From Nitrosarchaeum sp. (lineage in GTDB: Archaea > Thermoproteota > Nitrososphaeria > Nitrososphaerales > Nitrosopumilaceae), in assembly GCA_965223865.1 (NCBI GenBank), contig OZ245020.1, forward strand, positions 992,001 to 1,056,000: a stretch of DNA of 64,000 bases. Reading direction: 5' to 3'. The notes under the pieces were generated by a model. The model was given only the letters and a program-made list of their open reading frames with translations, made no database searches and was not told the origin of the DNA. The position numbers and the translations under genes are program-made. Shown here in pieces: positions 34,498 through 63,347 of this stretch. The first letter of the stretch is position 1; every line of letters starts with the position of its first letter.

Positions 34498-34514
34498 TTA
34501 GAAGAACTTATGAA
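34498..34514 (+). promoter_or_regulatory. Conserved BRE/TATA-like motif, copy 1
   Basis: TTAGAAGAACTTATGAA, 23 nt before TTG 34538. Confidence 0.75.
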
Positions 34515-34537
34515 CTTGCCAAATTCAGTTTGAGCAA

Positions 34538-36346
34538 TTGAAGACCAAGACATTGATTCTGCTTGCAATTCCAATTGTTGTAATTTTTTCTGCCAGTCAA
34601 AGTGCGCATGGATTATGGTTACCACAATCTCCAACGGAACTTCTTGAGAAAAGCCACTTGATCTTTGTTGGAACCATAACCTCTGTAAATTCTTTGGAGT
34701 TTGAACAGTCCAACTCGTACGAAATTGAGGAGGATGGAGTCTCCCAAACTATTGTTGAAAACTACACTCTTGTCCTTGATGAATATACGGTCAGCGTTGA
34801 TGAATTTGTGAAAAATCATCAAGACATAGATACAATTACAGTCAGACAGCCTACAATCAGCATTCCGGGAAGAATTGTACCTCATGGAGGGTTTGACATT
34901 GGTGACAGGGTATTGTTTTACATTGAAAATTTTGACGGTACTAACACCTACTCTAAGGAATCATTCAAAATTCCAGAACATTGTGATGCGGTAGCTGTTG
35001 TTCAGAAACCAAGAATGATTGGGGGTGACCTGAAAATGATGCAGGAAGGTATGGAAAAACAAGATAATTTCACTGCAAAATATCCTGTGATGTTTATTTC
35101 ACAAATGGATTTGGGCACACTGTATGGTGCAAGTCTGGAATATGATGTATACATTAGCAAACAAGTTGACAATATATACAAAGACATAGTTTTTCATGAG
35201 AAAATTACATCATATGCCAAGCCATGTGAATGGTTGTCTGTTGCAAAATGGGAGTTTACACCTGATACAGGCAACTATCTTGTAAATGGGAGAATATACA
35301 AAGAAGATTCCAACTTACCTATTGGCAACCAATTCTTTTCTGTGTTTGCAGAATCTCCGCTAAAGCAGTTCAAGTCAGGAGTTCCAGCTGATAAGATACA
35401 ATGTAATGATGATTTTGTTTTACTCAAAAAATACAACGGCTTCCCTGCATGTGTAAAACAGAACAGCGTCATTGACCTCATAAAACGAAATTGGATGACT
35501 ACTGATCAAATAGATGGTTATGCAATTGATTATGATGGAGATGTAAAACATCTGCCATTTGCTGATATTTGTACTAATGAAATGAGGATAATCTTACTGA
35601 CTCATTCCAACATAAGGTCACCTGAAGAACATTTTGTAATGGAAGATGTGGCTTTACCATCTAGAATGAATCAAGAAGATTTTGAACAATGTGCACGTGA
35701 AACAGATTTTACAAAATCAAGATGGAATATGGTCTCATTGGAAAATCCTGAACCTGAACCATCTAGCTTGAATGAGAAAAATCTCACCGATGCAAGAAAT
35801 AAACTAAGAGAAGTTTATCATGCTAATGCATCTTTTGGTCCATTTACCATCAAAGAGGCTATTGTTGGTTATGGTATGGGTGATGGATTTTTAGTGGTAG
35901 ATATTCTAGAAGATTACTATGATTCAGATGAATACTACCAATTAATAATACAAAAAATAATTGATATAACTGGCGGTAAAGTAGACATTGAGTTTAATTC
36001 ATCAGGCGCAATAGTTCCAACAAACATTGAATCTATATTTCCCCACATATGGAACGGATTTTTACATAGAAATGGAATAGAGTTTACTCCAAAAGATCAA
36101 CCCTATGCAAATAATGACGTTGGATACGATAATGTTCATCGTGTGTGTTCTCCTGTGGTGACATCTAATGGCACTGAACTATACATTTCGTCTGTATTTG
36201 TCTATGAGCCTTTTGAAATCACTGGAACATTTATTGATAAAATAAAACCTGATGACTGTTACAAAGTTTGGAAAACTGACACTGTTCTAGAAGAACCAGA
36301 CAGAATACTCATGTTATGGCTTGAAAATTATCATAAGAGTAATTAG
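34538..36346 (+). CDS. Secreted mosaic protein with SPLKQ..C..C..W module
   Basis: Signal peptide; N-terminal domain shared with 56701; ESPLKQFKSGV...CNDD...PACVK...RNW. Confidence 0.85.
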   Translation: MKTKTLILLAIPIVVIFSASQSAHGLWLPQSPTELLEKSHLIFVGTITSVNSLEFEQSNSYEIEEDGVSQTIVENYTLVLDEYTVSVDEFVKNHQDIDTITVRQPTISIPGRIVPHGGFDIGDRVLFYIENFDGTNTYSKESFKIPEHCDAVAVVQKPRMIGGDLKMMQEGMEKQDNFTAKYPVMFISQMDLGTLYGASLEYDVYISKQVDNIYKDIVFHEKITSYAKPCEWLSVAKWEFTPDTGNYLVNGRIYKEDSNLPIGNQFFSVFAESPLKQFKSGVPADKIQCNDDFVLLKKYNGFPACVKQNSVIDLIKRNWMTTDQIDGYAIDYDGDVKHLPFADICTNEMRIILLTHSNIRSPEEHFVMEDVALPSRMNQEDFEQCARETDFTKSRWNMVSLENPEPEPSSLNEKNLTDARNKLREVYHANASFGPFTIKEAIVGYGMGDGFLVVDILEDYYDSDEYYQLIIQKIIDITGGKVDIEFNSSGAIVPTNIESIFPHIWNGFLHRNGIEFTPKDQPYANNDVGYDNVHRVCSPVVTSNGTELYISSVFVYEPFEITGTFIDKIKPDDCYKVWKTDTVLEEPDRILMLWLENYHKSN

Positions 36347-36349
36347 AAA

Positions 36350-36742
36350 ATGAAAACTAGACTTGTGATAATCGTTGGAATAATTGGAGTTGTCTTGTCA
36401 TTTTTTGTGATAACTGGTTTTCTGGTGTTTGTTATGGGTCCACTTAACCATCAACAAGTTGTTGAATATCAGTCAAATGAATTAGTGCAACAGTTCCTTG
36501 AGACTTATCCTCAAAGTGGGATAACCTCTATGTCTGGAACGTTGTTTGAGAAGGAAATCAGCTTTACATACTCTAAAAATGCAAGATATGTTTCATTGAC
36601 ATTTTCAGATAGTATGGATGGTCAAACAATTTCTTACAAATGTGAGAGAATAATATCCTCACAAGAACCCGTAGAGATATTTCACTTTGAGGAACCCTCT
36701 CCTGAAATCATCAAAAATAACGTATGTGGAGAATATGATTAG
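36350..36742 (+). CDS. Membrane-anchored hypothetical protein (MKTR head)
   Basis: MKTRLVII + TM helix; 3 nt after the previous stop. Confidence 0.8.
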   Translation: MKTRLVIIVGIIGVVLSFFVITGFLVFVMGPLNHQQVVEYQSNELVQQFLETYPQSGITSMSGTLFEKEISFTYSKNARYVSLTFSDSMDGQTISYKCERIISSQEPVEIFHFEEPSPEIIKNNVCGEYD

Positions 36743-36745
36743 AGA

Positions 36746-38281
36746 ATGAAAACCAATCTTTTGGTAATTGCATTACTGTTTGTAGGTGTTTTTAGTTCTG
36801 TGCACTACTATGTTCCTGAGATTGATGATGAAGAATTGTTTGATAAGACGTCTCTGATTTTCCCAACAATGCCTTTTGCATATGCAGGTTGTGCTGCAAC
36901 AATCATACCACAGCCATGTTTTGACTCCTTTATGGGCAGTCATGAACCATTAACTGAAGACATCATCATGAAGGATCTTGCAAGAAACCTCGAAACAAAT
37001 TATGGTGATTGGATTCCTGTTGACAGAAACTGGGATTTTGAAGATGAATCCTTAGACTTGCCTGCAATAATTTGTACTGAATACATAGTTGATGGCTCAA
37101 AACAATACAGGATGGCTCAATGGGTTGATCCTTACAGGATTTCTTCTTGGGAAAATCATTACAATCCCCTCATGTGTGATAGATGGTTGCCTCCTATTGA
37201 TGATGGAATTAAAATCACTTGGGATAAGCAAAGCTATCAGGCAGACAGACAAGGCATTGTAACTGTAATTGACTACTCTATGAATAAGAATCCAAATGAG
37301 GATGAATATTTTGAAATTAAGGTTCATTCGGATGTTGATCATGCTGGTATCTCACTAACGGTAACTGAAACTGAACTTGATTCAGGAATATTTGAAGGCA
37401 TAGTGTTTTTTAGTCCTACTGAGGAATCAAGCGGATCTCTATTGCTAGTTGAAGACGCAGTATATGCAAAACATGCTGGGAATTCTGCCAGATCTAAAAT
37501 AACAATCGTTGAAAATTCCTTTGACGATTCTCAAATTTCATTCTACAATTCTGAGCTTCAACGCTATATCGACGAGTGTGACCCCTTGATCCACAAAGAG
37601 ACACTGCCTGACATTACAATAGAAACTGAAACTGAATGGTATGACTTGCAATACTGTATGTGGAGGCCTCACTATCCTGATGTCTCAAATATTGATAACT
37701 GTGTAGATTTGTTTGATACCCTTTACGCTTTTCATAGTGCACCAAAGCCAAACTGCGGAGTGCAGAGATACAATGAAGACGGCACTCCCAGAGGAATTTG
37801 TGAACCTGAACCATATTTGTCTGGCATGTACAGTGACGAGAATTTGATTAACAGTAACTGTACTGAAAATTATTCAGAATGGGCATACAAAACAGATGCA
37901 AACGATATGGTGTTTTATGTATTTGAAGAGATGGAAAAATATCAAGATTGGCAACTCAAGCGAGTTTTAGATAGATGTGAGGAAAATAATCCAAACAGAT
38001 CCATCAAGTCTTTTGAAAACTATACCCATTACATTGATTCAGGGTTGTGTCAATGGAATCTAAAAGAAATTTCAGAAAAGGTACAGGCTGTTCCTCTTTG
38101 TGTTGATGAAGACACAATACTAAAAGACGGTGTCTGCCAAAAAATTGTAACTGATCCGCAACCTTCTGATTTTAGAGAATCTGGAGGTAGCATAAGCCTG
38201 CTTTATGCTTATTCTGGCTTGGGACTGGTCGGAATTGTTGTTGGATTTTTGGTAATCAAAAAATGGAGAAAGAGAAAATGA
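36746..38281 (+). CDS. Secreted Cys-rich mosaic protein with one S-layer Ig repeat and C-terminal TM anchor
   Basis: WDKQSY...VID.SMN.NP...SD.D..GI.LTVTET...SGIFEG.VFF matches the S-layer repeats; ends TM + KKWRKRK. Confidence 0.85.
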   Translation: MKTNLLVIALLFVGVFSSVHYYVPEIDDEELFDKTSLIFPTMPFAYAGCAATIIPQPCFDSFMGSHEPLTEDIIMKDLARNLETNYGDWIPVDRNWDFEDESLDLPAIICTEYIVDGSKQYRMAQWVDPYRISSWENHYNPLMCDRWLPPIDDGIKITWDKQSYQADRQGIVTVIDYSMNKNPNEDEYFEIKVHSDVDHAGISLTVTETELDSGIFEGIVFFSPTEESSGSLLLVEDAVYAKHAGNSARSKITIVENSFDDSQISFYNSELQRYIDECDPLIHKETLPDITIETETEWYDLQYCMWRPHYPDVSNIDNCVDLFDTLYAFHSAPKPNCGVQRYNEDGTPRGICEPEPYLSGMYSDENLINSNCTENYSEWAYKTDANDMVFYVFEEMEKYQDWQLKRVLDRCEENNPNRSIKSFENYTHYIDSGLCQWNLKEISEKVQAVPLCVDEDTILKDGVCQKIVTDPQPSDFRESGGSISLLYAYSGLGLVGIVVGFLVIKKWRKRK

Positions 38282-39030
38282 AGACTGGAAATAAAATGAT
38301 CATATCCCTGGTTGCAATATTTGCAGTTTCTATTCCTATTTTTTATTTTACACAGGAAACATCTTTTGAAACCTCAATCCAAACAGATCCAGTAGACAAA
38401 CGAGAAGATCTTGATGAAGTTATACATTCTAACACGTCTTGTGTCAGCTTCTGGCGTACAGAATTATTCGAGATGCGGAAAGATGTCACTTATGATTATA
38501 AAAATGATCCCATATTCATAGAGTGCTCAGATGCCCTGACATCCCAAAGACACCTTGAAAGTCTGGAATTTGACAAATGGAGTGGACAGGGAGACGTTCA
38601 CTATGAAAGGGTAGACAGTGATAAAAAATACTGGGCAACCCTAAAGGACATCAAGTTACGTGGTGATGATGAGTCAATCCAGGTTACTTTTTCAGGCAAT
38701 GACTTTGAGACAAGCTGGACTACCACAGGACAGCAAAAGAAAACCTACACTGTTCCAGACTTTAGGATTGTCACAACAATTCACAAGGGCCAAGAGTTTG
38801 TTGCACTCTGCACCGACACGGTTGAGCGCAGAATTCATGTCCTAAAATATGACGGAATCACAGAAAAAGATGGAATTGACTACTATTCCTTTTGGCACAA
38901 GTCAACTACAATTCCAATTGAAGACTTGCCCAAGTGTCAATATCCGTCCATAATTAAGGACAGCAAAAGTGTTGATTTTGACTTGGGAGAAAAGCCAACT
39001 TCAGAAGTTTGGGACCATGACTGGGAATAG
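38278..39030 (+). CDS. Membrane-anchored hypothetical protein (MKTG head); C-terminal domain related to 59740
   Basis: ATGA overlap with the upstream stop; ...FW...C..P.I...S shared with 59740. Confidence 0.8.
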   Translation: MKTGNKMIISLVAIFAVSIPIFYFTQETSFETSIQTDPVDKREDLDEVIHSNTSCVSFWRTELFEMRKDVTYDYKNDPIFIECSDALTSQRHLESLEFDKWSGQGDVHYERVDSDKKYWATLKDIKLRGDDESIQVTFSGNDFETSWTTTGQQKKTYTVPDFRIVTTIHKGQEFVALCTDTVERRIHVLKYDGITEKDGIDYYSFWHKSTTIPIEDLPKCQYPSIIKDSKSVDFDLGEKPTSEVWDHDWE

Positions 39031-39033
39031 AAG

Positions 39034-39990
39034 ATGAAGACTGAATTTGGAATAATTGTTCTGGTGGCAATCATAGCTTCTGCAACATTGTTTTTCATAT
39101 ACCAAAACCCAAATGAAATCCCAAAATCAATGTCATTTAAAAAACAAACAAGTGAAATTATTCAAATCAATGAAAACTCAAAAAAATACAAACTGGATAA
39201 CGACATGCAACAATTCAATGCATCAAAAAAACTGATGGAGGAGAAACTCAAGGAACTTTCATGGGATTTGCTTGGAATCAAGATTTCCAAAGTCACATTA
39301 CTTGAAGGCCAATATCCGTTCCTAACTGTGCAGGAAAGAGCAGAAAAGTTTGACCTTGATCCTTCCTCAGTGTGTGCCTTTGAGCAAAACATCCCTCTGC
39401 AACTACAAAAAATCTCCCAGATAGACAATTTTCAGATGTTTTCCAAAAAATACCGATCACATACTATTGAACTAGACATATTTGATGAGCGAAATGACAT
39501 ATCAAACATTCACTATGGGTTGATTGCAACAAATGACAATGAGCAGAGTGCATCTACTTTCTTTCATCTTGATACGTGTACCAACAAGATAACGGACAAA
39601 CAACCATATTCTTTGAATTGCTTTGATGCAAATAGCGACTATAAGTTTGCCACATTCAACACCGATGATGTTCTGTCTAGCTACTCAAACGGCCATTTCT
39701 GCAAGATAGAGTTGGATCCTTGGCGTCAATCTCTTCATGAATATTCATTGACATTACGTGAGCAACTCCGACAACTAGAACAAGAATCCATGACAGGAAT
39801 TGTAGATCAAGAATCCCATTGGAAGTTCATCTCGGAGATGAACAAACTAGGAGATCTTGGAAACCTTGTTGCACAAGTTACTCACTACAACTATGATGAA
39901 CAAGGCTTACAAGAAAAAATTGAACAATATGAGAAACAGTATGGAAGCATTCCTGAGGAATTGTCAGAACTAATGGAGAAGAGAAAATGA
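39034..39990 (+). CDS. Membrane-anchored hypothetical protein (MKTE head)
   Basis: N-terminal TM helix, 318 aa, coupled to both neighbours. Confidence 0.8.
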   Translation: MKTEFGIIVLVAIIASATLFFIYQNPNEIPKSMSFKKQTSEIIQINENSKKYKLDNDMQQFNASKKLMEEKLKELSWDLLGIKISKVTLLEGQYPFLTVQERAEKFDLDPSSVCAFEQNIPLQLQKISQIDNFQMFSKKYRSHTIELDIFDERNDISNIHYGLIATNDNEQSASTFFHLDTCTNKITDKQPYSLNCFDANSDYKFATFNTDDVLSSYSNGHFCKIELDPWRQSLHEYSLTLREQLRQLEQESMTGIVDQESHWKFISEMNKLGDLGNLVAQVTHYNYDEQGLQEKIEQYEKQYGSIPEELSELMEKRK

Positions 39991-41354
39991 AAACTAACCT
40001 TTTGATAATCATTGGGATTGTTTTGACATCTGCAGTAATTGGAACAATTTTTGCCATTTTTATGATTTCTTATGATAACACACCTCAGACCACATTTGAC
40101 TATGATGTAGATTATGATGATCTTGTAGTGAGAGATGTTAGCATGATAGTGTACAAGACAGTGAATGATCATCCAGGAAAGAGTTGCTTTACTTTGTCTT
40201 CAGATGACCTAAATAGATTCCCAGATGACTTTTTAGATGACCTGAACAGTGCTGCACAAGAAGGGTTGCGTGAAGATCCTCAAATCTATCCTCCAGGCGT
40301 GTATACAGGATACGGCATGAATGCAGAAAAGAATCTTGTACTGGATCTTGTAACAAAGTACAACTTTAGTGAAACCCAAAATGTCTCTACTGACAACATC
40401 GCATCAATTCCTGACTCTGAATACCTTTTTGACTGCTTTTTTGATTATGATGGCAAGCAGTACCTGTTAAGACTAGAGTTTCAGCAACAACTACATGATG
40501 GCAATTTTGCAAATGTAAATGTCACAAAGAACAGTTTGGGCATTCCACATATCCTCAATGAGGATATTGTTGTGTTTCACGGTGGCTTCAACAGTACAGT
40601 TCTGTTTCACAATAACTTGAACACTGAAATCACTCTTTTCACACATGAGCCAACAGTGAATTTTGTAGATGAGGACGATGGAGACATTCATGAAAACAGA
40701 TTTGCAAAAACATTATCTGACTTTGAAACAATCATTCCACCCGGAAAATTCTTCTCATACTATTTTTCGCCGCACAAAGATAAGAATGATTTGCCAATAA
40801 GATATATGATAAAACCTTTTGATCTAGAGGGAACAGTAACTGTGAAACCCTATCCTCGGTGCATGACAGAAAACGAAGTAGCATCACTTTATGGTACGGT
40901 GAATGTGTATCCAAAGTTTCCAAAATATCTTCCAGGGGGATACACCTTTGAATGTGGAGTGCACAATACAAACGCGTTTGTGCATCTTGTTTACATGACT
41001 GACGAACAGCGCTCAAAGTTCACTGACACGGCAAATGCTGCATTTAACAGGGAATTTTTTGCAGATGGGGGTCTGGTGATTGACTATTATGATGAGGCAT
41101 GGAATGGGTGGATTGAAGATCCTAACTATGACAAGTTTGAAAAGGCACAAGAAAATTCACAGCACCCCAAATCCAAGACACTTGTCATTTCAGACCAGCC
41201 AGCAGTAATGATCAAGGAGTATTTTTGGGATGATGGGCAGCAGCATTCCTTTAACCGATTGGAGCTTTTTCTTGATGAAGAGCAAATCCGAATAAAAAGC
41301 GGTTTGGACGAAGAAGAATTGATTAAGATTGCAGAATCTTTTTTTGACAGGTAA
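39987..41354 (+). CDS. Membrane-anchored mosaic protein (MKTN head); C-terminal P.YLP.GY...EEL.KIAES domain
   Basis: ATGA overlap; C-terminal domain resembles that of 57639. Confidence 0.8.
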   Translation: MKTNLLIIIGIVLTSAVIGTIFAIFMISYDNTPQTTFDYDVDYDDLVVRDVSMIVYKTVNDHPGKSCFTLSSDDLNRFPDDFLDDLNSAAQEGLREDPQIYPPGVYTGYGMNAEKNLVLDLVTKYNFSETQNVSTDNIASIPDSEYLFDCFFDYDGKQYLLRLEFQQQLHDGNFANVNVTKNSLGIPHILNEDIVVFHGGFNSTVLFHNNLNTEITLFTHEPTVNFVDEDDGDIHENRFAKTLSDFETIIPPGKFFSYYFSPHKDKNDLPIRYMIKPFDLEGTVTVKPYPRCMTENEVASLYGTVNVYPKFPKYLPGGYTFECGVHNTNAFVHLVYMTDEQRSKFTDTANAAFNREFFADGGLVIDYYDEAWNGWIEDPNYDKFEKAQENSQHPKSKTLVISDQPAVMIKEYFWDDGQQHSFNRLELFLDEEQIRIKSGLDEEELIKIAESFFDR

Positions 41355-41363
41355 GATTTGAAA

Positions 41364-41522
41364 ATGAAAACTAGGTTTTTGGTATTAATTGGAATTGTTA
41401 TTGCATTGACAATTTCTTTCTTTGCTCTAGATCCATCACAAGATCATATTGCCCAGTATTTTCTGACTGATGAACAATTTGAGGAGATGATTTTGAATAA
41501 TGATATGCTGACAGATATTTGA
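41364..41522 (+). pseudogene. Truncated MKTR-head gene
   Basis: MKTRFLVLIGIVIALTISFFALDPSQDHIAQYFLTDEQFEEMILNNDMLTDI*; 52 aa. Confidence 0.6.
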
Positions 41523-41741
41523 CATATAATGAATCAAGTATTGTACGATGATAGAGATGATCTAAATGAGGTCGTTTATGCTTCCTGTTTCTCACGTATC
41601 ATTAAGGTAACTTCATCTAACTAGAGGAATACAACGAATTTCTTAGAATTTTAAAAGATTAAACCGTAACAAAAATTCCTTCTATGTGAGCGCTTTATTT
41701 TGAAATTATTTTTTGAGAAAGATTTGGTTTTGTGATTACTG

Positions 41742-42962
41742 TTAAGGAGAATCAAGAGTGATGTAACCCGATTTATAATAAACAATATCAATTTCATTCC
41801 CTACAATTTCTCTTAACATCTTGTCAGTTCTTTCTAGAGTCTCTCTGGTAAATTTTTCTTTCACTATTCCTACTTTAATACCTGCAACCTTTCCAGCATA
41901 TCGCTCGTCTAATGAATATGCATCAAGACCAAATGTCACCCCAGAAAAACTTGGAATTGGAAATTTTTCTCTATCATAAGTGCCAAATTTTTCAGAAAAC
42001 AGAGTACTCTTTTCCCAAAGTGTCTTTACTAACTCCCATGATACTTTTTCATTAAAGGCCATATCTGCATGAAGTATAATCAATTCTTGTTCATCATAGA
42101 GTTCATTTCTTTCTTTTTCTGCAATATTTGGATCTTCAATCAAAGTATCTAACTCTAATTTCCTTTTTTCTAATAGTCGAAGATCTTCCAATGACAACAA
42201 ATCTTCCTGTACCATCATCCCTGTGCCCCTTATCACTACTGGACTGTATTTTAGAATATGACTATCTCCTTTAGATTCCTTTTTGGCCCAACCACGTTCT
42301 GTCAATTTTGATATAGAACCTGAATCTACACAAACAGGAATATGCTTTTGTTCATAAAACTTGTATATCTTTGAAAGGTTTGGGTGGCAAATTACTTCCT
42401 GGAAACTGACATCATTTTTCATCTGCTTTAGTGGTGGCAGTATGTGTGAATATGGAGGGTTGTGGATGACGTCACATGAAACATTTGTTATGTTATCAGA
42501 AAGTCCAAACGTACCAATAATTTCAATTTCTTTAGAACCTGACGATAACAAAATTCCGTATTCTCTGCTCTGTGCATGACCTGTTTCATTATAACTTGTT
42601 TCCTCACCATCCACTAAGATGATAAACTCCTTGTCTTTGTCTTCATGTTTCATATCCAACAAATCCCTCGGTATGTCAATTACAAGCGTTCCAGAATCAT
42701 TTGATGTAATGCGGATAACAAGAGAGTTGGATTCGCAATAGGGAATTATCTCATCAATTGTGCTATTTGTTATGTTGTATGGAATATTGTATTTGATCTG
42801 TTTTGTTGTTATGCTGTAAACATCTGATAGTGGAATCGTTGTTGGGGAATAACTAGAAGAGTACATTATCTGGGCATTTGCATCTGGAATAGTCAGAAAA
42901 TAGGACAACGCCGGTACGCCACAAACAGCAATTGCAAAAATTATCAAAAGCCTAGTTTTCAT
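41742..42962 (-). CDS. Secreted mosaic protein (MKTR head): PEFG-protein-like beta domain + PLKQ..RGW module
   Basis: LVIDIPRDLLD..FIILVDGEE..Y.E; PPLKQ...C...PVCV...KLTERGW. Confidence 0.82.
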   Translation of the reverse strand: MKTRLLIIFAIAVCGVPALSYFLTIPDANAQIMYSSSYSPTTIPLSDVYSITTKQIKYNIPYNITNSTIDEIIPYCESNSLVIRITSNDSGTLVIDIPRDLLDMKHEDKDKEFIILVDGEETSYNETGHAQSREYGILLSSGSKEIEIIGTFGLSDNITNVSCDVIHNPPYSHILPPLKQMKNDVSFQEVICHPNLSKIYKFYEQKHIPVCVDSGSISKLTERGWAKKESKGDSHILKYSPVVIRGTGMMVQEDLLSLEDLRLLEKRKLELDTLIEDPNIAEKERNELYDEQELIILHADMAFNEKVSWELVKTLWEKSTLFSEKFGTYDREKFPIPSFSGVTFGLDAYSLDERYAGKVAGIKVGIVKEKFTRETLERTDKMLREIVGNEIDIVYYKSGYITLDSP

Positions 42963-42964
42963 TT

Positions 42965-45109: not shown

Positions 45110-45129
45110 CTTGGTTTCAAAATAACAAA

Positions 45130-45146
45130 TTCATAAGTTCTTCTAA
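45130..45146 (-). promoter_or_regulatory. Conserved BRE/TATA-like motif, copy 2
   Basis: Reverse complement reads TTAGAAGAACTTATGAA, 20 nt before ATG 45109. Confidence 0.75.
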
Positions 45147-45184
45147 CAATTTATGTTCCTGAGACAGACATCCAAGAAACTGTT

Positions 45185-46534: not shown

Positions 46535-46621
46535 AGAATTAGCCCTCCATAGTTTTCTGATTTAAAACATTGTTCATTTTCTCATGTCTCTTTTTCATTC
46601 TAGATATCTCAATTGATTTTC

Positions 46622-50059: not shown

Positions 50060-50081
50060 ATGACAAAGCATCGGTACCAAG

Positions 50082-50098
50082 TTCATAAGTTCTTCTAA
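50082..50098 (-). promoter_or_regulatory. Conserved BRE/TATA-like motif, copy 3
   Basis: Reverse complement reads TTAGAAGAACTTATGAA, 22 nt before ATG 50059. Confidence 0.75.
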
Positions 50099-50176
50099 GA
50101 ATTCCCATTAATAGAAAAAATACTAGTCGATTTGGAGTAAAAGAATCATGGATTAGATGAGGTCCTATCTTATCTG

Positions 50177-50575: not shown

Positions 50576-50617
50576 GAATAGCAATAGTTATCAACAATCA
50601 TTTTGGGCAGGATCGCA

Positions 50618-54156: not shown

Positions 54157-54173
54157 AATCAAGTTGCAAAACA

Positions 54174-54190
54174 TCAGAAGAACTTATGAA
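54174..54190 (+). promoter_or_regulatory. Conserved BRE/TATA-like motif, copy 4
   Basis: TCAGAAGAACTTATGAA, 27 nt before ATG 54218. Confidence 0.7.
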
Positions 54191-54217
54191 CATCACACAT
54201 GACCCATAATTGATGCA

Positions 54218-54685
54218 ATGAGCATAGAAAAACTTGGAAAGATTGGAATCAGCGTCGGCATAGCAGTTGGAGTGTTGGTGATATTCATGATTGGCGCGGC
54301 AATTCCTGACACGATTGAACGCTACCATCCTCAGCCACACTTGGTAACTCAGTTTGATCAAACCACAAATGAATATGATATAGATGCTGAATTTTTGATG
54401 AGCAAATTTAACCAGACAGAGGCATATTCAGTTTTTGTCCATCGATATCCTGATCATGTGTCTAACTTGGATGTGCATGAACATGGAGGATATCTCAGAC
54501 TGATTGCAGTAAATACGGATAGAAACAATGTCTTAGAGCTAAGACTGAATATGAATGCAGGAGACAACTGGAGACTAGAACAAGATGCAGAATGCCAAAT
54601 AGGTGCCAGCACAGACAGGGGAGAGATACGTGCAAGAAATTCTGCAGTTGTGGAGTTTATCAAAAAGACAGATTGTATTGAGTGA
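54218..54685 (+). CDS. Membrane-anchored hypothetical protein
   Basis: N-terminal TM helix; F...YP module and terminal Cys pair resemble 36350. Confidence 0.8.
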   Translation: MSIEKLGKIGISVGIAVGVLVIFMIGAAIPDTIERYHPQPHLVTQFDQTTNEYDIDAEFLMSKFNQTEAYSVFVHRYPDHVSNLDVHEHGGYLRLIAVNTDRNNVLELRLNMNAGDNWRLEQDAECQIGASTDRGEIRARNSAVVEFIKKTDCIE

Positions 54686-54721
54686 TGATAGCAACAGGTG
54701 TAAATGCTGAAAAACAATAAA

Positions 54722-55246
54722 ATGAAAACCAAATTTTTGAAAATTCAGTCAAGTGAGAAAAAGACCGTCTGTTTTATCATAGGTCTCTTTGTCCTCAATG
54801 CCTTTGGACTAATTCCAGTTGGAGTCATTGGCGCATATACTGCAGAGCCCATGAAAATAACTTCAAGTGAAACACTAGAGGATGGAACCATCAAAGAAAC
54901 AACAAATCTAAAGTATTACACTGAAGGATTATCTGAGAACATCCAATCCAATGTCTATGAATTTTTTAGATATTCGCTCCCGCTTGCCATGTCAGGATAT
55001 TTTCTAGTCACACCTCCTGACTTTACACATGATTACATTGGAGTTGTAGTGTGGATATTGGCATTTGCATCAATTCCACTTGCAATAAGATACACTGCAA
55101 AATTTCCAAGGTGGCACAGAATAGTCTACGTTTATCTCATTGCAGTACAGATATCGGGAATGTGGGCACTGCACCATATCAATTTTGAATGCATTTCACT
55201 TATCGACTATCCAATTAGACCAGGTCCCCCTTGTAAGGTAATATAG
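54722..55246 (+). CDS. Multi-TM hypothetical protein (MKTK head)
   Basis: Three to four hydrophobic segments; start placed at the MKT junction. Confidence 0.75.
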   Translation: MKTKFLKIQSSEKKTVCFIIGLFVLNAFGLIPVGVIGAYTAEPMKITSSETLEDGTIKETTNLKYYTEGLSENIQSNVYEFFRYSLPLAMSGYFLVTPPDFTHDYIGVVVWILAFASIPLAIRYTAKFPRWHRIVYVYLIAVQISGMWALHHINFECISLIDYPIRPGPPCKVI

Positions 55247-55249
55247 AAA

Positions 55250-55669
55250 ATGAATACTAGAAACAAAATAATATTGATTGCAGTAATTGCCATTATTGCA
55301 ACATTTGTGATAAACTCAGCTATCCCTGGAATATTATTTAGAATGCAAGACAATCTTGGGTTGATTCTATACACTTGCACGCTTGGAATAGAGCGTACTG
55401 GTCCATTAATGCTAATTTCTTATAACAATGGAACACATACCATTGATGAAAATTCCTGTGCTTGGATAAAAAATCCTGGTTACAAACCTGCTTCAATGGA
55501 ACATCAAGAAATTAATGAAATGTCTTGTCAAGAACTTTTAGAAAGACATGCTGCAGGTGACCCTTATCAAAATAAAGAAAACAAGATATTTGCAGAATCA
55601 AAGATCTCAAACTGTAATTTTGTAGATGGCTGGTCTGAAGCACAGAAAAAGGTTGATGATTGGAAATAA
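55250..55669 (+). CDS. Membrane-anchored hypothetical protein (MNTR head)
   Basis: TM helix; N.TH.ID...C.W motif also present in 36746. Confidence 0.78.
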   Translation: MNTRNKIILIAVIAIIATFVINSAIPGILFRMQDNLGLILYTCTLGIERTGPLMLISYNNGTHTIDENSCAWIKNPGYKPASMEHQEINEMSCQELLERHAAGDPYQNKENKIFAESKISNCNFVDGWSEAQKKVDDWK

Positions 55670-55672
55670 GAA

Positions 55673-56175
55673 ATGACGACCAGAGAAATGCTAACCCTGT
55701 GTTTTGCCTTGATGATCATAGTTGGCATCAACCTTAATTTTGTTTTTTACCAAAACATTGTCCCTCCACTGTATATGTCAATGGACCATCTAGATGGGGG
55801 TCATTGGCTCATCTGATCCTGAATTGATTCGGACTCATCTTGCAGGATTAAAACAAGAGTTAAAGAGTATAATGCAGAGTCTGCCTGAAGGCAAGAATCC
55901 GGTCTGGTTTTATCCAACAGAGTCGACCAATTTTCTTAGAATTGAAAGTGACGTAAACACCATGATCACAAGCGTTGAAAAGATTTCTGCATTTCCAAAG
56001 GATACTCTTGCATATCATACTGGAATTATGGATATCAGCAGCAGGGCCTCATTAATCAAAGAAAACCTGTCAGATGCCAAGAGGTTTTCTGTATGCAAGT
56101 GCAACAAATGTAGTTTTTACCCTGATATGGCCGGCCGGTGCTATGGAATTTGCAAAGATATGGATTAGAGAATGA
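55673..56175 (+). pseudogene. Membrane protein gene with two apparent +1 frameshifts
   Basis: MTTREMLTLCFALMII...DHLDG joins ORF 55794 across the G5 run at 55796-55800; a second shift near 56080 gives the hydrophobic tail GFLYASATNVVFTLIW...WIRE* overlapping the next ATGA. Confidence 0.65.
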
Positions 56176-56340
56176 AAACAGGTAAAAAAATGTTAATTGA
56201 ATTTATTGGCAAACACAATAAACTGCTCTTGTGAGAAAAAGCAGTGCATGATAGGACTTGCAAGTATCACAATAGGTGTTGGCGGGTTTATCTTGGCATC
56301 TTTGCTCTAAACACTTCCTTTCTTCTGACATTATAATTAA

Positions 56341-56357
56341 TTAGAAGAACTTATGAA
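56341..56357 (+). promoter_or_regulatory. Conserved BRE/TATA-like motif, copy 5
   Basis: TTAGAAGAACTTATGAA, 22 nt before ATG 56380. Confidence 0.75.
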
Positions 56358-56379
56358 TCTCATAGTTAAGACTAGTCAG

Positions 56380-56697
56380 ATGACAAAGATTGATTGTGCA
56401 CAAAACACTGAGCTTGCAGAAGAGATTGCAGAATTTCTACAGGAAAAGAATTTTTCAATAACATGCGAAAATGATCTGCTGATTACAAATGCAAGACTTT
56501 CAAAATCATTGCTTGAGTTATTTCTTGAAAAAACTGACAGGACCAGACACAAAATCACGCTTGTCGAACCAGATACTTTCCTGATTGCAATTCCTGTAAA
56601 GATGGAGGAAATCGGATTAGAGTCTTGTGAATTTTGCGGGTATACGAGCCACCATGATCTAGTTGAAGTTCATAGAAGGACACACCAAGGCTTGTAG
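56380..56697 (+). CDS. Small protein with C-terminal C2H2-like zinc finger
   Basis: CEFCGYTSHHDLVEVHRRTH; the track's ATG at 56353 lies inside the promoter motif. Confidence 0.75.
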   Translation: MTKIDCAQNTELAEEIAEFLQEKNFSITCENDLLITNARLSKSLLELFLEKTDRTRHKITLVEPDTFLIAIPVKMEEIGLESCEFCGYTSHHDLVEVHRRTHQGL

Positions 56698-56700
56698 AAA

Positions 56701-57642
56701 ATGAAGACTAGGTTCTTGATGATTGTTCTTGTATTTGCAGGTATTTTTGGAACCGTTTATGCTGTTCCAGAGCCTGATCCTGAACACAGCTTTAGATATT
56801 CTGAAATTGTTATTGAGGGCAGGATTTTGTCAGTCAGCATTATTTCTGAGCCCATAATTTACAGAACTGAAGACACTTACTATGAGCAATCAGGAATTGC
56901 AGTTTATGATGTGCAAGTTGTAAAGTCCCTAAAGAACCCTGGTAATGTCAAAACGATTACTGTTGCAGGATATTTCTTAAGAGAACCTCATCCTATGGCC
57001 TATGAGACTTATCCATATGAAGTTGGACAAAAGGTACTGTTGTATTTGCAAGAAAATACTCATGGAGATGGAAATACAGATTTGATTATTCGCTCCAGCA
57101 CTTCAAAGATAGTTGCAGAACCTGATTCTGATTTGGAATCATTGCCTCCTTGTAAGAGTGGACCTTCCCCAGGAAGAAATTTTGTTTTCTTTGATTGTAA
57201 TTGGGTTGAGGTTCCGGATCATTGGAAGTTTGAAAATGGAAAGTGGCAAGAAGATCCATCTGTACTAAAACTTGGACCCGAACCTGATCCCGTATGTCCA
57301 GAAGTTGCTGTTTGTACCTGTCCAGGAAAATACAACTACTACAATTCCACTGACAATCGATGCTACTCTTCACCGTACATTCCGACATCTTATCAGAATG
57401 CATGTAAGCAGTATGCGCAACTTGACTTTGCAGGATGGGCCTTTAATGAAAACACGTGTGACTGGGTTTCTGCCTCTAACCCATACACTGATGATGAAAG
57501 ATTACGTCTGGCGTCTGAGAAGGTAGAACCAGGAGGTCTTGGCATCGATCCTGTCTTTGATGCAAGTACTATTATCGTTGGTGTGTTGATTGGAGCAAGT
57601 GTTGTAGTTGGCATAACATACTACTGGAGAAAAAGAAGATGA
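56701..57642 (+). CDS. Secreted Cys-rich protein with C-terminal TM anchor (MKTR head)
   Basis: Signal peptide; N-domain similar to 34538 (S.[LI]..G.I.SV...G..VL.Y); ends TM + YYWRKRR. Confidence 0.83.
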   Translation: MKTRFLMIVLVFAGIFGTVYAVPEPDPEHSFRYSEIVIEGRILSVSIISEPIIYRTEDTYYEQSGIAVYDVQVVKSLKNPGNVKTITVAGYFLREPHPMAYETYPYEVGQKVLLYLQENTHGDGNTDLIIRSSTSKIVAEPDSDLESLPPCKSGPSPGRNFVFFDCNWVEVPDHWKFENGKWQEDPSVLKLGPEPDPVCPEVAVCTCPGKYNYYNSTDNRCYSSPYIPTSYQNACKQYAQLDFAGWAFNENTCDWVSASNPYTDDERLRLASEKVEPGGLGIDPVFDASTIIVGVLIGASVVVGITYYWRKRR

Positions 57643-58898
57643 AAACTGGAACTTTGATAATTGTTGGTGTAATTGCAATATTTGCAGTGTTTTTTGTACC
57701 TGTAAATGGTTTTTCTGAAGATAATTTTGATATTGGGAGATTTAGCTATTTTCATTACGGGGAAAAATTTTACCAATACAAGTACTATCCATTTGGCACG
57801 TTAGCAAGTGAGTCTTCTAGCAGATGCTATTTTACATCCGATTTTGTTCTTGATAAAAATTCTTTTTCAGAGCCAGGACATGTCATGTACAAATTTCCTA
57901 ATGACATGGTCTGGCCTGGCGGATATGCAAATAGCACATTTTTTGTCATGAGTTCACCCTCATTTAACTTTCCTGAAGATAACAACTTTGAGAGGATAAT
58001 TCCAACCAAAACTGAAGAAGGCAGTATAGTTTTAGAGTTCAATCTTGTGCCCGGACTCAACACATTTCTTGCAAACTCTACTGCTTTTTGGGACTCTCAA
58101 AAATCACAGATAATTGATTGCCCAAACCCATTTGATTATGAAAGACAAGATTATGGATATTATGACTTTGTGTATCCTCTTAAGGTTCAGCAGGACCGTG
58201 CAATGATTTTTGATTTGGACAAAGGTGATTTTTTGTGCAAACCAGAATTTGTTTTAATCAAAAAATATGATGGCTCTCCCGCATGTGTAAGGGAACAAAC
58301 TGCTCCAAAACTAACTGATAAAGAAGAAAGATCAGGTTGGAATGTAAGTGAACAGTTGTGGGAGTCGCTATCAAAGAATATGAATGAATATTATTCTGAT
58401 GATAACTGTCCAAGGCATTGTCTTATCTTTGATGAAAAATATGTTGTAAATGGGATAGAACAAACTTTAGGAAAAACAATTGGACTGCCAAAACTTTTGC
58501 CGGACGGTTATGACCATTTTCAATTTCATCATAGAGACACGTATTCTGTAGTTCAAATTTCTCCCAATTCTATTTCTTTGGATACATCTTGGAATGATTT
58601 TTACTGGGAAGATAATGGAATATTTCTATTATTTTCTGAAACCCCTGTAACTGTTGATGGAAGGACCCAAACTGAATACTGGGCAAAAAACAACGATGCA
58701 CAAAAACTAGATTTGATTACATCTGATGAACATGTGTATATCAAAGAAAGAGGAATTTTTTATGATGATAAACTTGACATTCTTTATCCAACATTTACAG
58801 AAGCCAAATTTAATTATGGAGACCTAACAATTACAGTAACAGGTTATGTTTCAAGTGAAGAAATGTTTAGAATAGTGAATTCATTTTTTGAAAAATAA
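57639..58898 (+). CDS. Secreted mosaic protein (MKTG head); N-half paralogous to 60992, RGW-type module, C-domain like 39987
   Basis: SRC.F...KFP.D..WPG.Y.NSTFF; KKYDGSPACV; PKLLPDGY...EEMFRIVNSFF. Confidence 0.83.
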   Translation: MKTGTLIIVGVIAIFAVFFVPVNGFSEDNFDIGRFSYFHYGEKFYQYKYYPFGTLASESSSRCYFTSDFVLDKNSFSEPGHVMYKFPNDMVWPGGYANSTFFVMSSPSFNFPEDNNFERIIPTKTEEGSIVLEFNLVPGLNTFLANSTAFWDSQKSQIIDCPNPFDYERQDYGYYDFVYPLKVQQDRAMIFDLDKGDFLCKPEFVLIKKYDGSPACVREQTAPKLTDKEERSGWNVSEQLWESLSKNMNEYYSDDNCPRHCLIFDEKYVVNGIEQTLGKTIGLPKLLPDGYDHFQFHHRDTYSVVQISPNSISLDTSWNDFYWEDNGIFLLFSETPVTVDGRTQTEYWAKNNDAQKLDLITSDEHVYIKERGIFYDDKLDILYPTFTEAKFNYGDLTITVTGYVSSEEMFRIVNSFFEK

Positions 58899-58916
58899 TT
58901 GTTGATTAAATAGAAA

Positions 58917-59480
58917 ATGAAAACTAGACGTCTAGAGAATTTACGAAAAAGAATAATTCTGGTAATCTTGGGAATTGTTGCATCCTATTTTGGAATTATA
59001 CCATTAGGCATGTTTTATCATATGTTTACATCTTTTTCATCATCTGATCCTGTATTCTCATACTTTTTCTTTAACGGTGCAAGAATCGGGATTATGGTAT
59101 TGTTTTTGTATTTTGCACTAGTACGTGTAAAACCATCACTTGTTCCACAACAAGAAAAATACAGAAAACTTGTCCTGCTTGCAATATTTGTGATTGTTGC
59201 ACTTGCTGTTTGTCTGCCAAGCGGATATGTCATTCCTCAACTAGAACAAGGCGGATGTATCACAAAATCCGGAAACTATAATGATGATGGTAATTTTGGC
59301 GGTTCTTCATCCCAGGGGATAACAACTGAATCTGAATGTATTGACAATTGTGTATTTTCTGGCAAGTTTAACACCCGAGAAGAAAAGTTTTGCGAGTTTA
59401 AGGGAGTATTTGGAAAAACACAATGGGTACAAACTCCTGCTGATTTTGAGACTCCAGTATTTGGTGAAATTGTAAAATGA
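58917..59480 (+). CDS. Three-TM protein with Cys-rich C-terminal domain (MKTR head)
   Basis: Three hydrophobic segments; C...ECIDNC...CEF. Confidence 0.78.
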   Translation: MKTRRLENLRKRIILVILGIVASYFGIIPLGMFYHMFTSFSSSDPVFSYFFFNGARIGIMVLFLYFALVRVKPSLVPQQEKYRKLVLLAIFVIVALAVCLPSGYVIPQLEQGGCITKSGNYNDDGNFGGSSSQGITTESECIDNCVFSGKFNTREEKFCEFKGVFGKTQWVQTPADFETPVFGEIVK

Positions 59481-59743
59481 AAATACTTTTGGCAATCATT
59501 GGAATTTCTTTATTATTTGTAATTTCAACTAGTGTTGTATTGTGGCCTGAATACGGAATGGTTTGCAACAATGCCGTAACGAAACATCTCCAAAAACATT
59601 CCAATCTGTTTGATGAAAATACTACTCATGAAACATATGCCATACAGGACATTGGATTTCCGTTTGGAGTGCATTCTTGGAACGTTCAAGAGTGTGTAAA
59701 TTATACATTTGAACAGCGCATCACAAAGGATGATGTAAAATGA
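59477..59743 (+). CDS. Small membrane-anchored protein
   Basis: ATGA overlaps on both sides; N-terminal TM helix; Cys pair. Confidence 0.75.
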   Translation: MKILLAIIGISLLFVISTSVVLWPEYGMVCNNAVTKHLQKHSNLFDENTTHETYAIQDIGFPFGVHSWNVQECVNYTFEQRITKDDVK

Positions 59744-60402
59744 AAGATAGTACCAAGAATGCTTCTTATGCAATTCTGTCTGTTATAATCGTCCTGCCTG
59801 CAATTTTTCTTGTCAGCGATTACATCTACTTTCAAGAGCCGTTATCAAGAGTAGCATTGTATCCGGATGATCCTATGTGTGACAAAGACTGCACTGAACA
59901 AGTCTCTGACGGATACAAGTGTACCGAGATAAAACAAGATGAATATGTGTGCAGAAAGCAACGCGGATTTTCCATTGGAGATGATGCTGTTTTCTATCAT
60001 TCAGCAGGGCCAATTTCCTATGGTGAAATCGTATCATTTCCAGAGGGGAAGTTTGAGGATATCTGGTTTAACATATACAATGTGAGAGTAATCGATAAAA
60101 ACTCAAAGACAATACAGGTCGATTTTGTCGAATCTGAAGATTCTTCTAGTGTGATATACAGTGCAAAGCTCAAACCGAATGACTCTTTTCTTTCATGCAT
60201 AAACCCGTGGAAATCTACACATCTTGTGTACTACACAGATCTATACGAGTATGAAAGCAAGACATATGCAGAATTCTGGGGACTTCATCCATACGCCCCT
60301 CCAGAGTTATTTCCCTGTGACATGCCAAAGATACTGGAATACTCATTGAGGACAGACTATGACATCTTGCTGCCAGAATATGAAAAGTTTGGATTTGATT
60401 AG
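59740..60402 (+). CDS. Membrane-anchored hypothetical protein related to 38278
   Basis: TM helix, Cys cluster, FW...PC..PKI..S. Confidence 0.8.
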   Translation: MKDSTKNASYAILSVIIVLPAIFLVSDYIYFQEPLSRVALYPDDPMCDKDCTEQVSDGYKCTEIKQDEYVCRKQRGFSIGDDAVFYHSAGPISYGEIVSFPEGKFEDIWFNIYNVRVIDKNSKTIQVDFVESEDSSSVIYSAKLKPNDSFLSCINPWKSTHLVYYTDLYEYESKTYAEFWGLHPYAPPELFPCDMPKILEYSLRTDYDILLPEYEKFGFD

Positions 60403-60424
60403 AAAATATCCAATATACAAAATA

Positions 60425-60441
60425 TCAGAATCACTTATGAA
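60425..60441 (+). promoter_or_regulatory. BRE/TATA-like motif variant, copy 6
   Basis: TCAGAATCACTTATGAA, 25 nt before ATG 60467. Confidence 0.6.
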
Positions 60442-60466
60442 CATGCTACATGGCGTCTAGTTGAGC

Positions 60467-60822: not shown

Positions 60823-60952
60823 AAACAAGTGGTGATACTCTTGCAGATTAGTACTGCTTTATGGTGATTGATTTTGGATTTATCTTTGGTATTATTTTTT
60901 GGAGAGATAAAAAATGAATACTAGATTCTAACTAGACTGTAAAAGAGCAAAA

Positions 60953-60969
60953 TTAGAATTGTTTATGAA
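60953..60969 (+). promoter_or_regulatory. BRE/TATA-like motif variant, copy 7
   Basis: TTAGAATTGTTTATGAA, 22 nt before ATG 60992. Confidence 0.6.
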
Positions 60970-60991
60970 TCTCTTGTCTAACTCTCTTGTT

Positions 60992-61792: not shown

Positions 61793-61960
61793 GTTCTTGA
61801 TAATTTCAAGTATTATTTTGATTGGTGTTATTTGCATGGAGAAATAGTTAGGTGATTGATTAAGGTCCACATGGAAAAGGATTTGTTTGTAGCAGAATAT
61901 ATGTTTCTGCAGACTTGATTTGGAAGAAAACCTAAAACTATCTCACAAATAACTTGTAGC

Positions 61961-62347: not shown

Positions 62348-62358
62348 CTCATAATTTT

Positions 62359-62661
62359 TTATTTTTTTAAACTGAGATTTTTTAGTTTTTGTAAACTACC
62401 ATGTCTATTTATTATTAGATGAATCATCATACCAAGACCTATTACAAATAATGTGCTGCTTATTATTTGACCAACAAAGGGTACAAGACAATCAGGATTT
62501 GACAGTATTGCCCTTGAATCAAACCCTAAAGTAACAAAAACAAACAATGCCATTCCTGTAAATCTTTTACATTCAGGTATTGTAGAATCTAAAAATAAAA
62601 CTCCATCGATACCAAAAATCATCAAGAACGTTCCAATAATTAGCAAAATTCTAGTCTTCAT
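62359..62661 (-). CDS. Small multi-TM protein (MKTR head)
   Basis: MKTRILLIIG; 3 nt after the upstream stop. Confidence 0.75.
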   Translation of the reverse strand: MKTRILLIIGTFLMIFGIDGVLFLDSTIPECKRFTGMALFVFVTLGFDSRAILSNPDCLVPFVGQIISSTLFVIGLGMMIHLIINRHGSLQKLKNLSLKK

Positions 62662-62664
62662 TTT

Positions 62665-63309
62665 CTATCCCGGTATTGGCGCCCATCCTCGTGTGATTAA
62701 TTCATGCCTTGAATCAATCTTGATGCATACCAATTTGGAAAAATCATGTTTTACAATCGATGATAATTCTGGATTCTTACATCTTCCATTTGCATCAACT
62801 GCCTTGCTATACTCTGAAACTACCCAATATCCACCTCCACTCGAACCGCTTCCTTTTTCTTTTCCAAGCGAATGATCAAAATAATGATACTGATATCTTC
62901 CAGGCTTGTCAAAAGAAACGGTAAAGTTTACAAGCATTGGCAAATCTGATTGTTCTGTATCTATATCGGTAGAGTTTCTCAGAGATAAAACCTGTCTAGT
63001 ATCCTCAAATCCTGTAAATGTTCTATTGTATTCTGGAGTCATGTGGTTGGGAATTTTGTCTAACAAGTAAAACCCATATCCTACCCTTACCTGAGACTCT
63101 TGGTTTCTAGATTGATCATCCAGTACTATTTGTAGGCGGTACTCTTTTCCAACAAGTGGAAAAATAATTTGATTTGATTCAAATCCGTCATCTGTAAAAA
63201 GACCACTTTGGGGAACATATTTTCTTTTTTCTAGTTCCTCATGATATGCAAATGACTCGTTTATAAAAAACACTGTAACCAAAACAAGAAAAATCACGAG
63301 ATATTTCAT
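62665..63309 (-). CDS. Secreted protein with terminal RGW module
   Basis: MKYLVIFLV signal; CKNP...KHD...VCIK.DS..ELITRGW. Confidence 0.8.
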   Translation of the reverse strand: MKYLVIFLVLVTVFFINESFAYHEELEKRKYVPQSGLFTDDGFESNQIIFPLVGKEYRLQIVLDDQSRNQESQVRVGYGFYLLDKIPNHMTPEYNRTFTGFEDTRQVLSLRNSTDIDTEQSDLPMLVNFTVSFDKPGRYQYHYFDHSLGKEKGSGSSGGGYWVVSEYSKAVDANGRCKNPELSSIVKHDFSKLVCIKIDSRHELITRGWAPIPG

Positions 63310-63330
63310 ACGCATTTTCAAAATCGAATG

Positions 63331-63347
63331 GTCATAAATTCTTCTAA
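63331..63347 (-). promoter_or_regulatory. BRE/TATA-like motif variant, copy 8
   Basis: Reverse complement reads TTAGAAGAATTTATGAC, 21 nt before ATG 63309. Confidence 0.7.

Follow-up and report, generated by a model that had tools for sequence, protein, structure and literature searches.

Genes for predicted exported proteins in a 64-kb window of a Nitrosarchaeum genome are joined to one another by a short, repeated stretch of DNA, here called the head, which ends one gene, starts the next and encodes the beginning of a putative signal peptide. It is probable, though by no means certain, that this stop/start/signal-peptide module doubles as a short stretch of homology at which ordinary recombination acts, within a flexible island that is exchanged horizontally. 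The window, by which the whole stretch analysed is meant (C1:992001-1056000), comes from a genome of 2.01 Mb in 4 contigs with 34% G+C (G000), whose small-subunit rRNA fits the archaeal model of Rfam. Before 34.4 kb it carries ordinary transport and metabolic genes; from 34.4 to 63.4 kb it holds short arrays of co-oriented genes, the products of which nearly all start with a charged N-terminus and a hydrophobic stretch. The ‘surface variation’ that an earlier note on this DNA attributed to the arrays is suggested by the signal peptides only.

The 16-mer AGAAAATGAARACTRG, with ≤2 mismatches allowed, matched 13 times in the window, all within 36345-62666 (expected number of matches 0.58; 0/100 dinucleotide shuffles of the window reached 13). 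The corresponding ATGs lie at 36350, 38278, 39034, 39987, 41364, 42962(-), 55250, 56172, 56701, 57639, 58917, 60914 and 62661(-). The earlier note had listed 16 starts sharing one junction, and 13/16 hold at this threshold; those at 36746 and 54722 have 3 mismatches each, and that at 55673 (MTT) has more. Its count for codon 3 was exact (ACT 12, ACC 3, ACA 1), and heads lacking a hydrophobic core directly after them are indeed present (MKTRRLENLRK, 58917; MKTKFLKIQ, 54722). Similarity between heads extends beyond the 16-mer to about +30 (ATGAAAACTAGRCTTTTGATAATYRTTGGA, translated MKTRLLIIxG), with the consensus (T)AGAAA / ATG AAR ACT AGR YTN TTG ATA ATT. Three heads have little or no body behind them (41364, 52 codons; 56172, 20; 60914, 5). 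The gene bodies are mostly unrelated, as had been proposed: when 37 head-bearing proteins were compared from G000 and G004, the sole close relative among the genomes searched, they shared, beyond orthologues, a few paralogue or local matches and a stretch of 50–120 amino acids (aa).

Across the whole of G000 there were 50 matches at ≤2 mismatches, of which 13 fall in this 29-kb stretch, with smaller clusters at ~205 kb, 1339 kb, 1685 kb and 1975 kb. At ≤1 mismatch, G000 had 20 copies, G004 21, G109 16, G096 10, G039 9 and G099 7; most of the 121 genomes of the family had 0–2, and a reversed-pattern control gave 0–3. The exact 16-mer was found in 26/151 genomes of the class (24/80 other genomes of the family, 1/70 from other families), distributed by genus as 2/3 in g1, 19/33 in g13 and 3/8 in g29. 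These exact copies were clustered, with up to 16 per genome, and the reversed-pattern control was 0 in all genomes. On an 11-kb contig of G000 (C4), near-matches recur every 2,584 bases (at 1405, 3989, 6573 and 9157), which suggests a long tandem repeat.

Constraint on the head lies at the nucleotide level, as supposed, and is seen as synonymous codon bias in two sets of heads. A codon-blind search for MKT[R/S][L/F][L/F]II returned 13 sites in 8/121 family genomes and 5 genera, with ACT in 12/13, TTG at codon 6 in 12/13 and ATA at codon 7 in 13/13. The second set comprised 46 non-redundant heads picked by protein pattern alone (G000 and G004 whole; array regions of G003, G109 and G096; 2 metagenome contigs), with codon usage in 807 G000 open reading frames (ORFs) of ≥250 aa as reference (Thr ACA 0.46, ACT 0.36; Leu TTG 0.19; Ile ATA 0.26). 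Codon 3 was ACT in 39/46 of these heads against the genome frequency of 0.36, the comparison that the earlier note had called for; at codon 6, Leu was TTG in 22/32 (genome 0.19) and, at codon 7, Ile was ATA in 18/29 (genome 0.26). The untranslated positions -5 to -1 were also alike among the 46 (A34, G33, A40, A39, A36). Core genes of G109, which belongs to another genus, are only ~74–80% identical in DNA to those of G000, and shared recent ancestry of whole regions is therefore not the explanation for conservation of the head.

Going beyond the earlier note, the consensus TAGAAA-ATGAAAACTAGA contains one stop in each frame: TAG at -6 (own frame), TGA at +2 and TAG at +9, the last varying between TAG, TAA and TGA. 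Any gene in front therefore ends ≤11 nucleotides (nt) from the next ATG. Of the 46 heads, 39 follow an upstream ORF (≥50 codons). Eleven of these ORFs stop at -6 and another 11 at +1, which gives an ATGA overlap; 7 stop at +8, making an 11-nt overlap that closes with ACTAG, and 10 stop elsewhere, so that 29/39 heads have a stop/start coupling geometry. The 18 starts listed in the window, which include two weaker heads, comprise 8 with stop + 3 nt + ATG, 5 with an ATGA overlap and 5 with other spacers (2, 9, 18, 36 and 91 nt); where the junction is of the ATGA type, the AGAAA tract codes for the ..RK with which the preceding protein ends (..EKRK, ..WRKRK). A stop at +9 was present in 36/46 heads, compared with 11.1 predicted from codon usage given the residues (0/200,000 simulations reached 36), and in 14/18 heads that already had the in-frame stop at -6 (4.3 expected). 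Elsewhere it was found at 28/270 coupled non-head starts and 33/417 signal-like non-head starts. Stops in three frames offer a concrete explanation of why ACT should be followed by AG, AA or GA, and suggest that heads are kept compatible with any upstream partner. In the window, the 511-aa and 313-aa cassettes end in a hydrophobic anchor and basic tail (..KKWRKRK, 38222-38281; ..YYWRKRR, 57580-57642) whose last residues are encoded by the junction purine tract; in G004, a similar anchor-plus-head unit (132040-132109) closes the shared island on the right.

The motif is not a general context of coupled starts, a check that could have undone the earlier note. When coupled starts were defined as the 293 G000 ATGs with an upstream ORF of ≥100 codons whose stop they follow at -4 to +12 nt, 22/293 had [AT]GA[AG][AG] upstream, and 15/22 of these were MKT/MNT heads; a general reinitiation context was rejected, non-head starts accounting for only 7/22 of the purine 5-mers. 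Moreover, starts encoding MKT and a hydrophobic stretch occur elsewhere in G000 without the upstream motif (e.g. 508575, 517065, 1256365, 1810166 and 1984368). A reading as a Shine-Dalgarno (SD) site was also weak, with an SD-like 4-mer at -12 to -5 in 10/46 heads versus 35/270 controls (the 3′ end of the 16S rRNA is ..GGATCACCTCCT). Mean folding energy from -18 to +15 was -0.99 kcal/mol for the 46 heads and -2.29 kcal/mol for 417 other signal-like starts. Prepilin-type (class III) signals have G, A or S before the hydrophobic stretch; most heads have R there, and this candidate was set aside.

Comparison with G004 shows where gene content changes. Mean identity of the two genomes is 91.5% over 1.62 Mb (whole-genome megablast, high-scoring segment pairs ≥1 kb), but 34422-36381 (99.1%) and 39982-60732 (98.5%) of the window match G004 109392-132068, identity within the island ranging over 98.5–99.2%; save for one rRNA-containing block, these are the longest high-identity blocks the two genomes share. 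The flanks of the island are not syntenic, those in G004 matching G000 near 1.59 and 1.53 Mb. High identity together with non-syntenic flanks indicates that the island recently moved between lineages or between sites. Variable gene content, non-syntenic placement and signs of horizontal exchange are thus all found here, and hypervariable genomic islands have been reported in marine relatives (PMC3990693).

Between the two matching parts, a 3.6-kb block of four genes (36360-39981; 130, 511, 250 and 318 aa) is missing at the corresponding position of G004. On the left, the G004 match runs as far as ..TTAGAAAATGAAAACTA; on the right, it resumes with AGAAAATGAAAACTA.., which places the crossover within the shared 15 nt AGAAAATGAAAACTA, the core of two heads; the expectation that gene-content breakpoints against a close relative would fall at the motif was borne out in this block. 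The change may have been a gain or a loss in either genome. Three of the four block genes lie 27 kb away in G004, 93% identical and directly behind a copy of the promoter/leader module that begins arrays (described below), and the 93% similarity ends in heads on both sides. Identity to the best G004 match steps through 99.1, 80.6, 93.2 and 98.5% along the island, the steps falling at three successive heads (36345-59, 36745-66 and 39982-96). Of the five breakpoints overall, three lie inside the -5 to +12 core or a few bases from it.

Cassettes are also found with changing neighbours. A metagenome contig from a public run of an unrelated study (X7) has the same joint from promoter to 511-aa gene, running from 34543 to 36758. 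The 130-aa cassette occurs between six different pairs of neighbours (in the window, at 205 kb in G000, in G004, in G003 and on two metagenome contigs), always via head junctions. A pattern search of genome contigs for the 130-aa protein gave 154 pattern matches and no relative, and an alignment search of metagenome contigs gave only 2 loci.

Several points weigh against recombination at the heads, or lower the force of the evidence for it. Heads are related by descent, perhaps with gene conversion, and are not independent samples, so that naive or binomial p-values overstate the case. Two of the 5 breakpoints fall outside heads, at 34422 (upstream of the promoter module) and at 60732 (in a membrane-anchor-coding stretch), and the three within heads come from one close genome pair and represent two or three events at most. 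Genome-wide enrichment is modest: an alignment end lies within 25 nt of 3/20 heads compared with 6/275 control coupled starts (Fisher p = 0.017; random expectation 0.4). Because cuts within genes would be lost by selection, breakpoints should cluster to some extent at gene boundaries in any case. A replicate in genus g13 failed, the array of G233 showing only scattered single-cassette matches elsewhere; there, 13/58 alignment ends lay ≤35 nt from a head against ~3 expected, a figure confounded by gene boundaries. Public contig evidence is thin, for X7 is the one clear alternative joint among contigs on 33000-46000, the sides of the other joints were 21–25 letters and are not relied on, and unitig ends may merely reflect repeats. 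Finally, 11-nt overlaps occur at ordinary genes too (12 in G000; 15 in G004, 3 of them heads), and none of the junctions in this window is of this +8 type.

How such an island might work can be sketched from its sequence. The stretch would consist of operon-like arrays of lineage-specific genes for exported or membrane-anchored proteins, on an island recently moved between species, with every downstream gene opening with the same portable DNA module. That module would supply the start codon and, for a Sec-type signal peptide or signal anchor, the charged n-region and the opening hydrophobic residues (MKTR-LLII-G), and its A-rich, unstructured context would suit termination-reinitiation coupling. 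Being the only sequence common to unrelated neighbours, it would serve as short homology, at which ordinary recombination (RadA-type or slippage) could delete, insert and re-join whole genes unbroken; a dedicated recombinase would be unneeded. A bolder form of this proposal, which we hold only tentatively, is that the junction evolved as a self-contained cassette-exchange module of ~30 nt (three-frame stops, start, export signal), kept interchangeable by selection: a counterpart of the integron that is recombinase-free, or uses an unknown recombinase, and that, in at least three genera, trades exported-protein genes both within a species and between species.

The features of the window, by position and strand, are as follows.

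34492-34544, plus strand: promoter/leader module TTAGAAGAACTTATGAAY, before the first gene of array 1.
34538-36346, plus strand: first gene of array 1, 602 aa, TTG start, WING-49 domain; 99.1% identical to G004.
36345-36360, plus strand: junction/head, TAG-AAA-ATG; left copy of the 15-nt core with the G000/G004 crossover.
36350-36742, plus strand: 130-aa cassette, family F1, with six neighbour contexts.
36741-36766, plus strand: head of the 511-aa gene, 3 mismatches to the 16-mer; left edge of the 93% block (G004 138725-142041).
36746-39990, plus strand: three cassettes of 511, 250 and 318 aa, with heads at 38273-38288 (ATGA overlap) and 39029-39044 (TAG + 3 nt).
39982-39997, plus strand: junction/head, ATGA overlap, upstream protein ending ..EKRK; right copy of the 15-nt crossover core.
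39987-41354, plus strand: 455-aa cassette, 99.8% protein identity to G004, where it directly follows the first gene.
41359-41522, plus strand: head and only 52 codons (short or truncated cassette).
41742-45109, minus strand: converging two-gene operon, comprising a 714-aa first gene (MYLKHF.., WING-49), a head (42952-42967) and a 406-aa cassette (WING-49).
54168-60402, plus strand: array 2, with promoter modules at 54168-54200 and 56335-56367.
54722 (weak), 55250, 55673 (degenerate), 56172 (20 codons only), 56701, 57639 and 58917, plus strand: ATGs of the array 2 heads.
59477 and 59740, plus strand: weaker heads of array 2.
60732: right end of the stretch shared with G004 at 98.5%, in a membrane-anchor-coding stretch and not in a head.
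60909-60931, plus strand: orphan head, ATG + 4 codons + stop, followed by a promoter module (60951-60973).
62359-63351, minus strand: two-gene operon with a TAG-AAA-ATG head (62651-62666).

Array starts are marked by the promoter module TTAGAAGAACTTATGAAY, which is repeated at 34492-34524, 54168-54200, 56335-56367, 60419-60451 and 60951-60973 and, as reverse complement, at 45123-45151 and 50075-50103; the module is confined to array starts, and the genes that follow are closely packed. A 98%-identical copy of 34492-34544 stands directly before the 511-aa gene in G004. The ATG of the module is itself the gene start (MNL..) at 50086(-), 56353 and 60965, and at 34510, 54187 and 60438 it opens a mini-ORF of 7–8 codons before the real gene. 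Promoter-proximal genes do have a different start and downstream genes the head, as had been described. In several genomes the first array gene starts with MKYF, MRYF or MKYL.., after TCATAYWGT or TCATATATT (G000 C1:1977753(-); L126 of G003, 224424(-); L120 of G109, 749168; L123 of G096, 46886(-), 54410 and 56554; L129, 743); this MKYF-type start is a counterpart, on promoter-proximal genes, of the MKT head.

Most cassettes have no Pfam or NCBIfam match, and WING-49 (NF058652, 49 residues) alone recurs, in 5/10 island proteins tested against NCBIfam. It has 28 hits spread over G000 and none in 14 control genomes, and a literature search found no paper mentioning the domain. The MTTREM.. cassette (55673-56168) is split into 47 codons and a 124-aa ORF in another frame; its counterpart in G004 is an intact 166-aa gene (127012-127512), and the G000 cassette is likely frameshifted. 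Between the arrays lies a 449-aa protein without a signal peptide (45185-46534, minus strand), with weak matches to a CDC48 N-terminal domain and to DUF5643, both under curated cut-offs. The window contained no detected tRNA genes or Rfam families. The variable region extends past the window to an AIPR (abortive-infection-type) protein and an HFX_2341-like/Csa3-like regulator (L127:12908-14401 and L127:2988-3710, equivalent to G000 C1:1068908-1070401 and 1058988-1059710).

The head could instead be a by-product, a tuned start and signal-peptide unit inherited through tandem duplication of an old secreted family, the mature parts of which have since diverged, with recombination being incidental. 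The recurrence of WING-49 in half of the island proteins tested, its 28 hits in this genome and its absence from the 14 control genomes would fit such descent, as would the weak local similarity of some bodies; junctions are unstructured, ATGA overlap is the commonest coupling geometry genome-wide (83/293), and survivorship bias by itself places breakpoints at gene boundaries. We nevertheless think this rather unlikely, given that genera with only ~74–80% DNA identity in their core genes agree in ACT, TTG, ATA and the untranslated bases, and that stops unused by the current upstream gene are kept (14/18 against 4.3). Nor would it account for one cassette having six sets of neighbours, or for a crossover placed precisely in the core when the DNA around it differs by only ~1%. 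Rather less probable again is that the head is a shared regulatory target of a small RNA, RNA-binding protein or processing nuclease that co-regulates or segments polycistronic messages, recombination being irrelevant. Conservation does span untranslated and synonymous positions, and heads persist on genes with no hydrophobic core directly after them, but the window has no Rfam match (complementary RNA was not sought beyond Rfam), and both three-stop use and the crossover would be left unexplained; we regard this reading as highly improbable.

A true integron-like system, closest to what the earlier note proposed, would have an unlinked or unrecognised site-specific recombinase acting at the core AGAAAATGAAAACTAG and moving discrete, perhaps circular, cassettes. 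Of that proposal, breakpoints in the motif and constraint at the DNA level stood; the absence of a recombinase by the arrays examined, and of room for an attC-like site, told against the integron mechanism. In its favour, 3/5 breakpoints coincide to within a few bases with the -5 to +12 core, that core is kept as an exact 16-mer in three genera, and tyrosine recombinase genes exist elsewhere in each genome. However, no tyrosine recombinase (PF00589) was found in or beside the arrays examined in G000, G004 and G109, and an integron-type gene (intI) is thus missing beside the array. The PF00589 hits of G000 (860-866 kb, 1627 kb and 1857 kb) come no closer than ~160 kb to the island (1026-1056 kb), and the tyrosine recombinase 29 kb from the G004 island sits in a flank conserved with G000. 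Serine recombinases were not found in any of the 5 genomes searched, and proteins sampled around the island included no recombinases (transposase families were not searched one by one). In integrons, attC sites are imperfect inverted repeats of roughly 60–140 nt at the 3′ end of each cassette. Spacers of 3 nt and overlaps of 4 or 11 nt leave no room for such structured sites, and 13/18 listed junctions have the 3-nt spacer or 4-nt overlap, a judgement made without a formal attC model. By its folding energy, moreover, the junction has less structure than other signal-like starts. The core has no inverted-arm architecture beyond AAAA-N6-TTTT, one block boundary lies at about +8 to +21 and two outside heads altogether, and an identical core is also simply the longest shared homology. 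An enzyme of this kind is accordingly improbable, and the breakpoint pattern is a better fit to short-homology recombination, our preferred reading, than to a site-specific enzyme.

Marine microbes, relatives of this archaeon among them, are known to have flexible islands rich in surface-related genes, but whole-gene swapping in packed operons is rarely visible. Recombination at the heads would give it a concrete device, in which one short joint ends the upstream gene, restarts translation, supplies the export signal and sits at block differences. If true, this would provide a testable rule for the diversification of exported-protein repertoires in abundant archaea of the ammonia-oxidiser type, a simple marker (the 16-mer) for finding such arrays, and a natural three-frame stop/restart element testable as a coupling part. 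Literature on Nitrosopumilus islands, archaeal integrons and secreted-protein N-termini yielded no paper on this junction, supplementary files being outside the scope of that search.

Known systems share parts of this arrangement. Variable lipoprotein genes of Mycoplasma have a conserved 5′ leader or signal peptide and differ in their mature parts. Like the arrays on the reading preferred here, the Mycoplasma loci (Vpma etc.), as the cited sources describe them, are surface-protein gene families with recombination at a common end, but there an adjacent Xer1-type recombinase and inversions move one promoter (PMC2268961, PMC5634654), whereas here the genes of each array share one orientation and seem to be co-transcribed, and neither an adjacent recombinase nor a lipobox is present. 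Integrons, including archaeal ones (bioRxiv 10.1101/2022.02.06.479319 / PMC9668308), resemble the arrays in that co-oriented, unrelated genes, which in the arrays are apparently promoterless, stand behind a promoter that would be shared, and in that genes are gained and lost at breakpoints in a repeated junction. Unlike the integrons described there, the window arrays have neither an adjacent integrase nor an attC-like structured site, and their junction reaches across the start codon into putative signal-peptide sequence, consecutive genes being 3 nt apart or overlapping by 4 or 11 nt. In archaea, termination-reinitiation coupling has been described for genes that overlap or lie very close together (Huber et al. 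2019, PMC6728339; 2023, PMC10666635), and the co-directed gene pairs of those reports likewise have ATGA overlaps or very short distances; here, in contrast, one conserved module with a stop per frame is reused at dozens of unrelated pairs.

The closest published analogue found is the lpl tandem lipoprotein-like cluster of Staphylococcus aureus, in which a conserved nucleotide stretch in every ORF is the proposed site of homologous recombination (Tsuru & Kobayashi 2008, PMC2568036). Both are tandem exported-protein genes in a genomic island, reshuffled among strains in the lpl case, and here too a conserved stretch is present in every gene of a co-oriented cluster and holds breakpoints, albeit from few events in one close pair. 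They differ in that, on that paper's account, lpl genes are paralogues of one family with the stretch mid-ORF, whereas in this archaeal host the bodies mostly lack detectable similarity, a few sharing the 50–120-aa stretch, and the conserved DNA is a stop/start junction and signal-peptide start with stops in three frames.

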